Counted from the first letter of the stretch, positions 40,370 through 43,173 are shown. The stretch is 46,236 bases of DNA from Candidatus Falkowbacteria bacterium (GCA_963774955.1 CAVZGV010000001.1:1-46236); one strand, 5' to 3'. Numbers and translations are program-made. The notes: generated by a model not told the origin, from the letters alone.

Positions 40370-40984
40370 ATGAGTATTTTTTCATTCAATCGGGAGCGAA
40401 AATATCAGCTATTTATTGAGTTAATGAAGCCTCACCTAGAGACTTCTATTTTAGATGTTGGTTTTACAGAAGAAGAATATCGACCAAGTGATAATATTCT
40501 GGAAAAATCATATGCTTTTTCTGAAAAAATAACGGCCTTGGGCATTGACCAGCCCGTAAAATTTTCAGCCCGATACCCTAAAGTCAAGGCGATTGTTTAT
40601 GACGGCAAAAAATTTCCCTTTAGTGACTCTCAATTTGATCTGTGCTGGTCTAATGCTGTTTTGGAGCATGTCGGCGGAGAAGAGGCTCAAGTTTTATTTT
40701 TGCAGGAAATTAAACGAGTGGGCAAAAAGGCTTTTATATCCACACCGAATAAATGGTTCCCGCTTGAATTACATACTAAATTTCCTTTACTACACTGGTT
40801 ACCAAAAGTAATGTTTGATAAGATTTTAACGCTTACAGGTAAATCCTGGGCAGCCGGGGATTATATGCATCTTTTAAGTTTAAAACAAGTACAAGTTCTG
40901 ATTGCTAAAGCCGGGATTAAGGATTGTCAGATAATAAAGAATAAATTTCTATTTTGGACGATTGATTTTGTAATTATATTATAG
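40370..40984 (+). CDS. Methyltransferase-domain protein (class I SAM-dependent-like)
   Basis: ILDVGF..., FDLCWSNAVLEHV and KRVGKKAFISTPN fit a Methyltransf_11-like pattern. Motif I is degenerate. Confidence 0.5.
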   Translation: MSIFSFNRERKYQLFIELMKPHLETSILDVGFTEEEYRPSDNILEKSYAFSEKITALGIDQPVKFSARYPKVKAIVYDGKKFPFSDSQFDLCWSNAVLEHVGGEEAQVLFLQEIKRVGKKAFISTPNKWFPLELHTKFPLLHWLPKVMFDKILTLTGKSWAAGDYMHLLSLKQVQVLIAKAGIKDCQIIKNKFLFWTIDFVIIL

Positions 40985-41005: not shown

Positions 41006-41053
41006 GGAGAGTTCGCCTATCCCGCGAAGCGGGATGCCGCTCCGCGGCAGTGG
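41006..41053 (+). pseudogene. 5' relic of a tRNA-Ser-like gene (acceptor 5' strand plus D-arm start) interrupted by a 30-nt double-hairpin repeat
   Basis: GGAGAGTTCGCCTA[R1]GTGG. With R1 removed it reads GGAGAGTTCGCCTAGTGG, compared with GGAAGGTTCGCCTAGTGG in the intact tRNA-Ser. Confidence 0.6.
41020..41049 (+). repeat. R1: 30-nt GC-rich double-hairpin repeat (tcccgcgaagcgggatgccgctccgcggca)
   Basis: 27 of 30 nt identical to R2 at 41474-41503. Hairpins TCCCGC-gaa-GCGGGA and GCCGC-tcc-GCGGC. Confidence 0.8.
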
Positions 41054-41074
41054 TTGTAAAATAATTTAAAATTA

Positions 41075-41371
41075 ATGAAATTTATTGTATATATAATTCA
41101 AAGCCTAAAAAATGGCAGATATTATATCGGACATACTAATGATATTACAGATAGATTGCGAAGGCATAATCATGGTTTAGTAAAATCAACCAGATATTTT
41201 ATTCCATGGGAAATTGTATATATTGAAAAATATAATACAAAATCTGAAGCATATAGGAGGGAATTGGAAATAAAAAGATATAAAGGAGGAATTCTATTTA
41301 AAAGGTTACTTGGACAATTTGAGAAAATAATGAGAAAGCCTAAAACTACAAAGTTATTATTGAAATATTAG
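41075..41371 (+). CDS. GIY-YIG nuclease-domain protein (98 aa)
   Basis: YIIQSLKNGRYYIGHTNDITDRLRRHN...E..IK matches the GIY-YIG motifs. The stop lies 2 nt before the tRNA. Confidence 0.85.
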   Translation: MKFIVYIIQSLKNGRYYIGHTNDITDRLRRHNHGLVKSTRYFIPWEIVYIEKYNTKSEAYRRELEIKRYKGGILFKRLLGQFEKIMRKPKTTKLLLKY

Positions 41372-41373
41372 AT

Positions 41374-41458
41374 GGAAGGTTCGCCTAGTGGCCTATGGCG
41401 CACGCTTGGAAAGCGTGTTACCCGCAAGGGTTCGTGGGTTCAAATCCCACACCTTCCG
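41374..41458 (+). tRNA. tRNA-Ser (anticodon GGA), 85 nt, CCA not encoded
   Basis: Hand-folded cloverleaf: acceptor GGAAGGT/ACCTTCC, D stem GCC/GGC, anticodon stem CACGC/GCGTG, loop TTGGAAA, long variable arm ACCC-GCAA-GGGT, T arm GTGGG-TTCAAAT-CCCAC. Confidence 0.9.
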
Positions 41459-41473
41459 CTTTTAATTATATTG

Positions 41474-41503
41474 TTCCGCGAAGCGGAATTCCGCTCCGCG
41501 GCA
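41474..41503 (+). repeat. R2: second copy of the 30-nt double-hairpin repeat (ttccgcgaagcggaattccgctccgcggca)
   Basis: Direct repeat of R1. It sits immediately 5' of the tRNA 3' relic. Confidence 0.8.
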
Positions 41504-41555
41504 GAAAGTTTGTTGGGTAGAAATGCCCTCGGGAGTTCGAATCTCTCACTCTCCG
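41504..41555 (+). pseudogene. 3' relic of the same tRNA-Ser-like gene (from the anticodon loop to the acceptor 3' strand)
   Basis: GAAA-GTTTG, variable arm TTGGGTAGAAATGCCCTC, T arm GGGAG-TTCGAAT-CTCTC, then ACTCTCC-G. ACTCTCC is the exact complement of GGAGAGT at 41006. No D-stem 3' strand or anticodon-stem 5' strand was found. Confidence 0.6.
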
Positions 41556-41688
41556 CCTTCGCTACGCCGTAGCTCGTTAGAGCGTGGGCGAGCAATTACT
41601 AAATTTCACTCGGCATAGCTTCGGCGTTATTAATCCGCAGTTGAGAAAATAATTATATTTGAGGCTTCACAAAATCAAACCCCACGTT

Positions 41689-41922
41689 ATGTACTATGTT
41701 TATTCATTAAAATGTAGGGATGGGTATTATATCGGTTGTACAAATAATTTAGATGACAGATTGTTAAGACATAAAAATGGGCATGTACCTGCAACCGTGA
41801 ATCGTCTCCCAGTAGAATTAGTTTTCTATTTTGCTATTGTTGACAAACATAAAGCTTTTATTTTTGAAAAGTACTTAAAGTCAGGCTCTGGACGAGCTTT
41901 TATAAATAAACATTTGGCTTAA
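41689..41922 (+). CDS. GIY-YIG nuclease-domain protein (77 aa from MYYVYSL)
   Basis: YYVYSLKCRDGYYIGCTNNLDDRLLRHKNG...E..LK. Start moved to the ATG at 41689. Confidence 0.8.
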   Translation: MYYVYSLKCRDGYYIGCTNNLDDRLLRHKNGHVPATVNRLPVELVFYFAIVDKHKAFIFEKYLKSGSGRAFINKHLA

Positions 41923-41926
41923 ATTA

Positions 41927-42400
41927 ATGACCAAACCAAAATACTCACTCGCTCATAAAGACGATGAAATGGTAGAACTGGTAAAAAAGACCGATCAAAA
42001 GACCTTGGCTGTCTGGGCTATTAATTGCGCTGAACGTGTACTGCCATATTTTAAGAAAAAGTATCCGAATGATCAACGACCTCAACAATCTCTTATAACT
42101 CTCAAGACTTGGCTTAAAACAGGCGTCTTTAAAATGTCAGTTATCCGCAAAGCTTCTTTAGACGCCCATGCAGCTGCTAGGGAAGTAGGCGAGGACAGTC
42201 CGGCTCGTTCAGCTGCGCGTGCCTGTGGTCAGGCTGTAGCAACTGCCCATGTGCCCAGACATGCGTATGGTTCAGCCATATACGCACAACAGGCTATTTT
42301 TAGAACCTCCAACCCAGATGTGGCTGATATTAAAGTAGCGAAAGAACGCGATTGGCAATACCAGCATTTAATAAAGTTAAGAATAAAATCAGTTAATTAA
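41927..42400 (+). CDS. Helical protein resembling Imm-5-like putative immunity proteins
   Basis: LAVWAINCAERVLPYF...DQRPQQSLITLKTWL...LDAHAAAREVGEDSPARSAARACGQAVATAHVPRHAYGSAIYA matches the pattern recalled for that family. Confidence 0.45.
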   Translation: MTKPKYSLAHKDDEMVELVKKTDQKTLAVWAINCAERVLPYFKKKYPNDQRPQQSLITLKTWLKTGVFKMSVIRKASLDAHAAAREVGEDSPARSAARACGQAVATAHVPRHAYGSAIYAQQAIFRTSNPDVADIKVAKERDWQYQHLIKLRIKSVN

Positions 42401-42414
42401 ATTTTTCTAGAATT

Positions 42415-43173
42415 ATGATAATCAAAAAACCTAAGAAAGCCACATTTTTGGTTTTAGTTGTAGGTCTTAGTATGTCACTTATAATCTGGATCGGTTATGA
42501 GTATTCACTATCTGATGATCCTAAAGGCGAGGTAAATATCGTTAAACAAATTATTTATCAGGCCGCAGCAGCAGTCATTCCGATTCATCCGGCTGTTGAT
42601 TTAGAAGTAGCATTTCACCGCCAGGAACATGCGCTTTCGTGCGAAGTGGCAGCTTTGCGCATGGCTTTGCTTTATAGAGGCTTTAATGTAACTGAGAATG
42701 AATTAATCAGTCAATTGCCGATATCTGACCCGGATCCGCGTAACTTAAAAGAGAATACCTGGGGTGATCCAAATTTGGGCTTTGTCGGCAATATAAATGG
42801 CAGGATGCCAAATACCGGTTATGGTGTTTATGAACAGCCTATTTATGATTTGGCATCAAAGTATAGTTCGGCTAGGATTATTACTAACGGCACCATTGCT
42901 GATTTAACTACAGAATTATCTAAGGGGAATCCGGTCGTGGTTTGGGGGGTGATAGGCACGGGCAAAGACATCTCCTGGCAAACTCCTGAAGGAAAAATTA
43001 TTACTGCCAAGCTGGATGAACATGCCCGAACTCTAATTGGTTTTACAGGCAGTTCAGATAATCCCAAGTTAATGATTCTTTTAGACCCGATTTACGGCGA
43101 AATCAGATTATCCATTAGTGCTTTTCAAAAAAACTGGGAAATGCTTGCTAAAAAGGCAGTAGTTATCTATTAG
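42415..43173 (+). CDS. Membrane-anchored C39-like (C39_2) cysteine peptidase domain protein
   Basis: N-terminal TM helix. FHRQEHALSCEVAALRMALLYRGFNVTE holds the catalytic Cys context, with H and D candidates later. Confidence 0.65.
   Translation: MIIKKPKKATFLVLVVGLSMSLIIWIGYEYSLSDDPKGEVNIVKQIIYQAAAAVIPIHPAVDLEVAFHRQEHALSCEVAALRMALLYRGFNVTENELISQLPISDPDPRNLKENTWGDPNLGFVGNINGRMPNTGYGVYEQPIYDLASKYSSARIITNGTIADLTTELSKGNPVVVWGVIGTGKDISWQTPEGKIITAKLDEHARTLIGFTGSSDNPKLMILLDPIYGEIRLSISAFQKNWEMLAKKAVVIY

Follow-up and report, generated by a model that had tools for sequence, protein, structure and literature searches.

We analysed a 46,236-nucleotide (nt) stretch of DNA from Candidatus Falkowbacteria bacterium, an uncultured, ultra-small member of the candidate phyla radiation (CPR) (GCA_963774955.1, CAVZGV010000001.1:1-46236; hereafter the window), in which a small GIY-YIG nuclease gene and an intact tRNA-Ser(GGA) gene lie between the two ends of another tRNA-Ser(GGA) gene. 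In the reading that we consider probable, a selfish, homing-like cassette split the resident tRNA gene and took its functional place. At about 41020-41503, it would comprise a GIY-YIG gene of the Slx1/UPF0213 type, a tRNA-Ser(GGA) of another allele (type C, the resident being type B) and a double-hairpin module at each junction. It would have left the 5′ end of the old gene (positions 1-20, with module R1 at 14/15) on its 5′ side and the 3′ end (position 35 onward, preceded by module R2) on its 3′ side, and a second cassette, made of a hairpin leader and another GIY-YIG gene, would have attached just past the old tRNA 3′ end. Mobility and nuclease cleavage, and with them the role of the hairpins, are what we infer from sequence. 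The window locus exemplifies a widespread and apparently undescribed arrangement. All window features named below are on the plus strand.

The split tRNA-Ser(GGA) gene and its empty site

The 5′ relic begins with GGAGAGTTCGCCTA (41006-41019), which corresponds to positions 1-14 of type-B tRNA-Ser(GGA), that is, the 5′ strand of the acceptor stem and the first part of the D-arm. It is interrupted in the D-loop, at 14/15, by R1 (TCCCGCGAAGCGGGATGCCGCTCCGCGGCA, 41020-41049), a 30-nt double-hairpin module of 77% G+C in a window of about 37% G+C, and it ends with GTGGTT (41050-41055), D-loop positions 15-20. In the tRNA of contig L001, GCCTA runs into GTGGTT as uninterrupted D-loop sequence, which places R1 inside the relic; a first reading made from the window alone (the sequence-only reading) is to be adjusted here, as R1 is not at the relic edge and the relic runs on for 6 nt. 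After an AT-rich leader come the first GIY-YIG open reading frame (ORF), GIY1 (41075-41371, 98 aa; PF01541, 59 bits), and, 2 nt past its stop codon, the intact type-C tRNA-Ser(GGA) (41374-41459; detected by ARAGORN; Rfam, 53.8 bits). A 14-nt spacer (41460-41473) follows, of which the final TTG is a remnant of the 5′ side of an anticodon loop (positions 32-34), as judged from the homologous junctions in L001 and L004, which read ..TTAGCTTG, module, GAAAGCGTG. R2 (TTCCGCGAAGCGGAATTCCGCTCCGCGGCA, 41474-41503), the second double-hairpin module, has 67% G+C and stands at 34/35, in the anticodon, of the 3′ relic (41504-41555). This relic is type-B tRNA-Ser(GGA) from position 35 to the end; it starts GA-AA-GTTTG and runs through GAAAGTTTG, the variable arm, the T arm and ACTCTCCG. 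The sequence-only reading had seen correctly that an ORF and a complete, different tRNA separate the relics, and that the 3′ relic begins in the anticodon loop; its further suggestion, that this is the classical position of tRNA introns, did not hold (34/35 as against 37/38).

That 41006-41019 and 41504-41555 are two ends of one cloverleaf, as had been proposed, was confirmed by sequence comparison, which identifies the gene as a resident tRNA-Ser(GGA). The 7-nt acceptor strand of the 5′ relic is the exact complement of ACTCTCC at 41548-41554, and the relics match the intact tRNA of locus L206 at 14/14 (5′) and 49/52 (3′) positions; the 14/14 match extends to the intact tRNAs of L203, L001 and L004. 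Neither relic consists of words common in the window: with up to two mismatches the 14-mer of the 5′ relic occurs only there and in the intact tRNA, and a 25-mer from the 3′ relic end occurs once. An Rfam model that holds the reverse complement of a plastid tRNA gene matches both the 3′ relic and the 3′ half of the intact tRNA. The relics lack positions 21-34, with the D-stem 3′ strand and the anticodon-stem 5′ strand; when they were joined through the middle of the intact tRNA, ARAGORN returned a valid tRNA-Ser.

The C39 peptidase encoded 3′ of the tRNA locus has homologues through which L206 was reached. The gene order of L206 is that of the window (ATPase, DsbA, methyltransferase, tRNA, Imm5, C39, RecQ) at 71–85% protein identity (methyltransferase 79%, Imm5 75%, C39 74%, RecQ 85%). 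The L206 methyltransferase stop codon and the Imm5 ATG are separated by nothing but 71 nt of spacer and an intact tRNA-Ser(GGA), GGAGAGTTCGCCTAGCGG...GGGAGTTCGAATCTCCCACTCTCCG, with the acceptor ends GGAGAGT..ACTCTCC; the site contained no GIY-YIG sequence by tblastn and no hairpin module. The sequence-only reading had pointed to relatives as the place to look for just such an intact tRNA and an empty site, and L206 has both at the orthologous position. L203, the closest relative found (C39, 83%), also carries a type-B tRNA that is intact, bare and without a module. Because the L206 tRNA is bare and intact, we take the relics as the ends of the resident gene, and the R1-to-R2 block together with 41556-41926 as extra DNA in the window.

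Occupied sites were found in four contigs that encode the closest GIY1 homologues (L001, L004, L005 and L006), with DsbA 5′ and Imm5, C39 or RecQ 3′ as in the window; among relatives, L206 and L203 are bare, and the window and these four are occupied. L005 has an intact type-A tRNA and an identical 22-nt 5′ relic with a D-loop module, and no 3′ relic. In L001 an intact type-B tRNA is present, with type-A relics on both sides of the GIY-YIG gene and tRNA, while L004 combines an intact type B with several layers of other relics, one of which has a T-loop insert. In L006 the 5′ relic is type-B-like and 41 nt long, its module stands at 34/35, and the intact, GIY-YIG-linked type-C tRNA differs by one base from that of the window. 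In the window, too, the tRNA beside GIY1 (type C) is another allele than the split resident (type B). Judging from these alleles, resident tRNAs have been displaced repeatedly at one syntenic locus, from A to B to C.

Hairpin modules, nucleases and recurrence at other tRNA genes

R1 and R2 differ at 3 of 30 positions, two of these differences forming a compensatory pair, and they are the only two matches to the module in 46 kb (0 expected). They had been described in the sequence-only reading as direct repeats bounding the insert; repeats they are, but instead of simple terminal repeats they proved to be copies of a widespread hairpin module found at relic loops. In an alignment of 27 modules from protein-selected loci, a fold of two hairpins with 6-bp stems and 3-nt loops left 97.8% of cells paired and had 28 doubly changed cells at three pairs, a value not reached in any of 500 shuffles. 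Covariation supports this predicted fold. A single long hairpin was the thermodynamic optimum for R1 and R2, yet its covariation was no better than that of shuffles, and it was rejected. The loops vary freely, the first being mostly GNA and the second mostly TNC, so that each DNA strand would bear one GNA-loop hairpin and the module has dyad symmetry; GCGAAGC corresponds to a DNA mini-hairpin that Hirao and colleagues reportedly found to be very stable. On the sense strand the alignment has six G-U cells, its non-standard cells being the recurrent C-T of the CCCCGC..GCGGTG variant. These G-U cells faintly suggest folding of the sense strand; over all hairpin-like windows, a noisy set with many false windows, G-T and A-C mismatches numbered 22 and 12.

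The R1 30-mer is identical in L020 and L090, where it sits at 34/35 of tRNA-Ser relics that adjoin diverged GIY-YIG genes. Other GIY-YIG clades are accompanied by a second type of module, CCACCGCC-N4-GGCGGGG, in which an A-G mismatch recurs, and module type tracks GIY-YIG clade even among tRNA-Ser loci alone. Fragments of tRNA-Cys in L031 and L063 carry the module, with no GIY-YIG gene detected near them. No Rfam family matched R1, R2 or the leader of the second GIY-YIG gene, even at permissive thresholds.

We aligned each relic to its neighbouring tRNA. Modules sit in the D-loop (after nt 14 or nt 19–23) and in the anticodon loop, after the first anticodon base in Ser and Tyr and after the second in Thr and Pro, and the relic persists for only 4–10 nt beyond them. 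For cassettes of the 3′ type, breaks map to the anticodon loop or T-loop. Some modules have another module nested in one of their loops (L125, L132, L136, L153 and L164), and in L159, L165 and L170 a hairpin loop contains AT-rich DNA. Every junction maps to a site that would be unpaired once the tRNA or hairpin has folded, and breaks in the cloverleaf are confined to its three loops. No target-site duplication was visible at module junctions in these alignments. Every relic examined had a module, including young ones that are identical to the adjacent tRNA; since this is so, and since the only two modules of the window sit at relics, we take the module to come with the cassette.

A related symmetric 30-nt module, TCCCGC-N3-GCGGGA-TCCCGC-N3-GCGGGA, with invariant stems and free loops, was seen in L008-L122 (examples at L008:1205, L022:4005, L028:1418, L040:6104 and L044:2869). 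Among the matches listed, its hosts are Patescibacteria, Saccharibacteria, Lentisphaeria, Kiritimatiellae, Ignavibacteria, Chitinophagales and gammaproteobacterial bins, and it is multi-copy in some metagenome-assembled genomes (MAGs); taxa and copies are at least as many as these, in a possibly biased sample. Fifteen of 48 symmetric modules fall within stop-to-stop ORFs of at least 150 codons (in L008, L028, L041, L043, L049, L054, L056, L091, L093 and L120), 11 of the 15 in the SRxAGSRxAG frame, which looks like a tolerated 10-residue insertion reminiscent of Rickettsia palindromic elements. In Lentisphaeria the module has ggatattggatattc-type repeats on both sides, and in Kiritimatiellae a longer conserved repeat is built around it (..cctttagc[tc]cgcgg-module-taac..gcagtg); from these contexts (L039, L047, L058, L083, L085, L087, L118 and L119; L027, L029, L084, L092, L099 and L100) it is embedded in larger, lineage-specific repeat families.

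GIY1 and the second GIY-YIG protein, GIY2 (43 bits), both score above the PF01541 cut-off of 22.6. Residues Y6, Y17, G19, R27, H31 and E63 are invariant in 31 homologues, GIY2 included; we take the catalytic residues here to be equivalent to Y6, Y17, R27 and E75 of I-TevI. The nearest solved relatives of GIY1 by sequence are the UPF0213 proteins BH0048 and EF2693, then Slx1 (phmmer against the PDB: 1zg2, 1.9e-6; 1ywl, 4.5e-4; SLX1 next). With an AlphaFold model of GIY1 (predicted local distance difference test score 88, low in the C-terminal 18 residues), Foldseek ranked BH0048, Slx1-Slx4 and HIGLE before I-TevI and UvrC (1zg2, 5.7e-5; Slx1/HIGLE, 1e-3 to 8e-3; I-TevI, 0.3; UvrC, 0.7). By sequence and predicted model, GIY1 thus groups with the Slx1/UPF0213 (YhbQ-like) branch and not with I-TevI. 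The best GIY1 homologues are annotated from Parcubacteria/Patescibacteria MAGs; looked up as exact sequences, the GIY1 and Imm5-like proteins of the window had no match on record. GIY-YIG proteins of the cassettes have 77–98 aa, which are taken up by the catalytic domain and a basic 18-aa C-terminal tail; no DNA-binding domain was found by Pfam, alignment or model. Because of this, and because of their likeness to structure-specific nucleases, structure-selective cutting seems more plausible than the reading of a long sequence.

GIY2 (41689-41922; 77 aa from the ATG at 41689, with an open frame from 41659) is 32% identical to GIY1 and belongs to a different subfamily. Its GC-rich hairpin leader (41556-41688, 133 nt) starts directly after the tRNA end (..CCGCC) and has a motif, TTCG-hairpin-CTTCGGCG-TGACGnAGTCCGCC (T..TCCGC), in common with the spacers of L134, L135 and L191, compared with which the window copy carries an extra insert. 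Close GIY2 homologues lie 3′ of tRNA-Ser genes in L134 and L191, and the leader is missing from the L206 empty site, where the Imm5 ATG is 1 nt past the tRNA. The second GIY-YIG ORF beyond GC-rich hairpins, noticed in the sequence-only reading, belongs, with its leader, to a separate cassette type that is attached after the tRNA 3′ end. In L005 a similar hairpin stretch occurs 3′ of the tRNA, without GIY2.

Scanning metagenome contigs with protein alignment alone yielded 69 non-redundant GIY-YIG loci. A tRNA gene on the same strand was present within 260 nt 3′ of the ORF in 54 of them: Ser-GCT in 17, Ser-GGA in 16, Tyr-GTA in 13, Ser-TGA in 4, Thr in 2, and Ser-CGA and Pro in 1 each, giving 38 Ser in total. 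In 46 of the 54, the initial 12 nt of that tRNA recurred (up to two mismatches), in a fragment bearing a hairpin, within 300 nt 5′ of the ORF. Most of the remainder had a relic derived from a different allele, a tRNA that overlaps the end of the ORF, or a mirror form, in which intact tRNA, ORF, hairpin and 3′ relic follow one another. Genes for tRNA-Lys and tRNA-Gln are also occupied. The split-tRNA design is hence general, in both polarities, at Ser, Tyr, Thr, Pro, Lys and Gln tRNA genes. Tandem arrays at L175, L202, L173/L198 and L048, the older relics of which have more inserts, point to repeated events at one gene.

Individual loci illustrate the range. The order tRNA, GIY-YIG, 3′ relic, GIY-YIG, 3′ relic was seen at L202:1-1185 and L048:5395-6100; two copies of 5′ relic, module and spacer lie 5′ of an intact tRNA-Ser(CGA) at L082:5480-5723; and an older 5′ relic lies 5′ of the current one at L053:7400-7700. 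At L209:244-1040 an 89-aa GIY-YIG ORF with a GC-rich hairpin leader directly follows the 3′ end of a transfer-messenger RNA (tmRNA) gene (Rfam, 121.7 bits), between smpB and infC; with its tRNA-like end, tmRNA appears to serve as a further site. Some database proteins of the family (P0011, P0019, P0037 and P0061) and the C-terminus of the L175 GIY-YIG protein have spurious extensions, such as MERSHSGLVRLL.. and ..GRGAAAAA; such N- or C-terminal extensions arise because gene callers translate the tRNA relic and hairpins. For the annotation of CPR and other MAGs, this means that relics and hairpins are mistranslated into GIY-YIG proteins, and that tRNA fragments can mislead tRNA counts.

Proposed mechanism and alternative explanations

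Under splitting and replacement by a homing-like cassette, the nuclease would cut a tRNA gene where its DNA codes for loops. The substrate may be a hairpin or cloverleaf into which the sense strand folds, given the likeness of the enzyme to structure-specific nucleases and its lack of a DNA-binding domain. The break would be repaired by copying the cassette from a donor, and the cassette would supply the missing tRNA part or a whole tRNA, keeping the essential gene functional while the displaced fragment stayed behind as a relic. The ORF would ride in the tRNA transcription unit. The hairpin module would belong to the cassette junction and split the former target in the relic, and it may be bound by the nuclease; junction seal, target disrupter and nuclease substrate are candidate roles. 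A GIY-YIG element that targets a tRNA-Ser gene and carries a replacement tRNA had been one option in the sequence-only reading, and it is supported by the L206 empty site, the different allele carried and the dozens of similar loci.

Several points weigh against this account. The mechanism is read from anatomy, with no cleavage, donor or intermediate observed. GIY1 has diverged as its flanks have and may be an old resident that was lost in L206 and L203, so that loss would fit as well as gain; clean excision would be possible because the 5′ relic and the intact tRNA could recombine. In many loci the relic equals the intact tRNA, and the nuclease should then cut the restored gene; the account explains neither immunity nor where the hairpin sequence comes from and how it is inserted. 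The window junctions imply more than one event and not a simple insertion, because two different loop sites take part, the old tRNA has lost positions 21-31 and the TTG before R2 fits another allele. A nuclease with a catalytic domain only is atypical for site-specific homing enzymes, and the link between module type and GIY-YIG clade could merely mirror host lineage.

The most serious alternative, unlikely in our judgement, is that the GIY-YIG gene has long been passed on vertically beside tRNA-Ser(GGA) and has possibly become domesticated, that the relics arose by local duplication and gene conversion among alleles, and that the gene was lost in L206 and L203, without any recent invasion. 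GIY1 is 65–74% identical to its syntenic homologues in L001, L004, L005 and L006, which matches the 61–80% of the flanking DsbA, C39, Imm5 and RecQ; the ORFs are intact and the catalytic residues kept across this divergence; and recombination between relic and intact tRNA offers a ready route to clean loss. Nearest-neighbour GIY-YIG pairs of at least 75% identity are, moreover, almost always at the same tRNA type, although one pair of 81% identity sits at different isoacceptors. Against such descent, the two closest relatives are bare and have exactly the allele that is split in the window, and the family occupies at least seven tRNA species and tmRNA, in both polarities and in tandem arrays. 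Domestication also leaves the loop-specific breaks and the hairpins unexplained.

We regard it as rather improbable that the hairpin modules are autonomous REP-like (repetitive extragenic palindromic) or double-hairpin mobile elements that colonise dead tRNA fragments and have no tie to GIY-YIG genes. Even substitution-free relics have the module, both modules of the 46-kb window are in relics, the relic always ends 4–10 nt past the module, the module type follows the GIY-YIG clade, and the bare L206 and L203 tRNAs are without one. What autonomous elements would explain is the dispersal of the symmetric module, which among the matches listed is found in many phyla, between genes and in long ORFs, with no GIY-YIG gene within 4 kb. 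They would also explain signs of ongoing secondary insertion, namely the more numerous and larger inserts of older array relics and the hairpins nested in hairpins, and they have models in the mitochondrial double-hairpin and GC-cluster elements, which act as autonomous hairpins (PMC2800124, PMC4478555). Successive REP-like insertions, an alternative named in the sequence-only reading, are a partly right description where the hairpins are concerned.

Perfectly complementary acceptor strands, a 3′ piece that starts in the anticodon loop, near-palindromic R1 and R2 that could pair together, and hairpins at loop positions like small archaeal introns might suggest that the relics are exons of a functional split or intron-containing tRNA, with R1/R2 as archaeal-type pairing or splice signals or the 460-nt insert as an intron. 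This is very improbable. The two stem strands encoded by positions 21-34 are absent, the pieces are separated by an intact tRNA of identical anticodon, L005 and L006 have a single relic only, and the insert is at 34/35, not 37/38, with no Rfam match for the module. ARAGORN at default settings, with the intron option used, found no tRNA in four in-silico deletion constructs, and no continuous or intron-containing tRNA model was found for the region; the decayed intron that the sequence-only reading had also allowed for is not supported. Poor Pro and Arg models obtained from the constructs at a lowered ARAGORN threshold only were disregarded.

tRNA genes are classic integration sites, at which integrating elements restore the gene with their own partial copy. 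An att-site footprint of an integrase-mediated island or prophage is nevertheless just as hard to credit here: the insert of about 0.5 kb encodes a GIY-YIG protein and a tRNA only, no recombinase was found among the neighbouring ORFs (DsbA, methyltransferase, Imm5-like, C39 peptidase and RecQ; ORF listing and Pfam), and 5′ and 3′ duplications both occur, with breaks in loops and no fixed 3′ core. An assembly or binning artefact is a negligible prospect even for a metagenome-assembled CPR genome, in which repeats can mis-join contigs, as the design recurs with diverged sequences in dozens of independent assemblies from different projects and the flanks are collinear with L206.

A bolder proposal, which we think possible but less likely than not, goes further. 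The cassettes might represent an undescribed class of selfish bacterial elements, with minimal Slx1-like nucleases that read structure in preference to sequence and cut the loops of the cloverleaf into which the sense strand of tRNA and tmRNA genes would fold, as well as the loops of older hairpins, and with spread by splitting and restoring the gene in either polarity. The hairpin module would be an obligatory partner (landing pad, junction seal or immunity device), and the symmetric 30-nt module a non-autonomous, REP-like derivative.

Related systems and the surrounding genes

By analogy, the closest counterparts would be SegB of phage T4 and the double-hairpin and GC-cluster elements of mitochondria. 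SegB exceeds the cassette proteins in size and includes a region that binds DNA. This GIY-YIG homing endonuclease is encoded by a free-standing gene in a tRNA gene cluster; its recognition site contains the T-loop motif conserved among tRNAs, and through its action SegB and the neighbouring tRNA genes are inherited together while tRNA markers of the recipient are lost (PMC2330249). The cassettes resemble it in having a GIY-YIG gene lodged among tRNA genes; unlike SegB, a phage protein that is not known to leave partial tRNA duplicates or hairpin modules, they encode 77–98-aa Slx1/UPF0213-like proteins in bacterial chromosomes.

In Allomyces atp6, a mobile endonuclease ORF reportedly replaces the end of its host gene (Paquin, Laforest and Lang, in 1994). 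There as here, the element would bring its own copy of the displaced gene part, the gene works and the old part is a relic, but atp6 is an organelle protein gene, whereas the cassettes target tRNA genes, replace the 5′ part, the 3′ part or the whole tRNA, and have their breaks in cloverleaf loops. We know only of 3′ replacement where mitochondrial gene ends are replaced by mobile ORFs. The logic of splitting and restoring would also agree with the replacement of the murC 3′ end, an analogy drawn in the sequence-only reading.

The hairpin modules share with double-hairpin elements, yeast GC clusters and sponge hairpin repeats that they are short and GC-rich in an AT-rich genome and have one or two hairpins with conserved stems and variable loops (PMC2800124, PMC4478555). 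As with the mitochondrial elements, single, tandem and nested copies are seen, located in ORFs, spacers or genes for structural RNAs, and no flanking duplications are visible; flanking duplications are absent also from the Allomyces mitochondrial double-hairpin elements (PMC2800124). A passage of PMC4478555 cites GC-rich palindromes flanking tRNA genes in Neurospora mitochondria. Unlike mitochondrial hairpins, the modules are bacterial, measure 30–36 nt and stand precisely at the loops of disabled tRNA fragments that border a nuclease cassette. The link of GC-rich double hairpins with mobile endonuclease ORFs, otherwise known from mitochondria, would have a bacterial counterpart, one that could be rebuilt from defined DNA.

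REP/REPIN elements with RAYT (REP-associated tyrosine transposase) genes are likewise short palindromic doublets tied to a dedicated nuclease-type gene; the cassettes differ in having a GIY-YIG gene in place of an HUH/Y1 transposase and modules that are not dispersed in the window. With archaeal split tRNAs and bulge-helix-bulge introns they have in common a tRNA in pieces and short structured inserts in the D, anticodon and T loops, but the pieces are incomplete, an intact gene stands alongside, excision gives no tRNA and no splicing endonuclease is implicated. In CPR bacteria, the group to which the window also belongs, rRNA genes are described as holding insertion sequences and introns with homing endonucleases (PMC11270868); whereas the insertions so described are within rRNA genes, the cassettes are free-standing, duplicate part of a tRNA and have hairpin modules.

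Full-text searches of open-access papers turned up no account of bacterial tRNA genes that carry GIY-YIG cassettes, nor any of these hairpins, an absence that falls short of proof. The locus gives UPF0213/YhbQ-type GIY-YIG proteins a concrete, testable context, of a kind that we did not find described for them. A structure-directed insertion rule, under which only loops, those of older inserts included, are entered, is possible and would be a new targeting principle if confirmed. As an evolutionary strategy, the element would survive in tiny, streamlined genomes inside the transcription unit of an essential, single-copy tRNA.

On the left of the locus lies a methyltransferase gene (40370-40984, 204 aa; Pfam Methyltransf_11), the orthologue of the gene that borders the L206 empty site (79% identity). 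A consensus scan gave a promoter-like match at 40955-40982, 5′ of the 5′ relic, agreeing at 9 of 12 positions. It could be the old tRNA promoter, now driving relic, GIY1 and tRNA, although the hint is slight: promoter-like sites in the region were fewer than in shuffles. A terminator scan of the region found none after the modules. The first 1,000 nt of the window have 51% G+C, compared with about 37% elsewhere, and no Rfam family scored above threshold there. On the right, 4 nt past GIY2, begins an Imm5-like gene (41927-42400; Pfam Imm5_like, 1.7e-41; 75% identity to the L206 gene), a putative immunity gene that adjoins the C39-like peptidase gene 3′ of the tRNA locus (together 41927-43173). 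This 3′ neighbourhood is variable: L001 is without the Imm5 gene here, and L203 has other genes instead.

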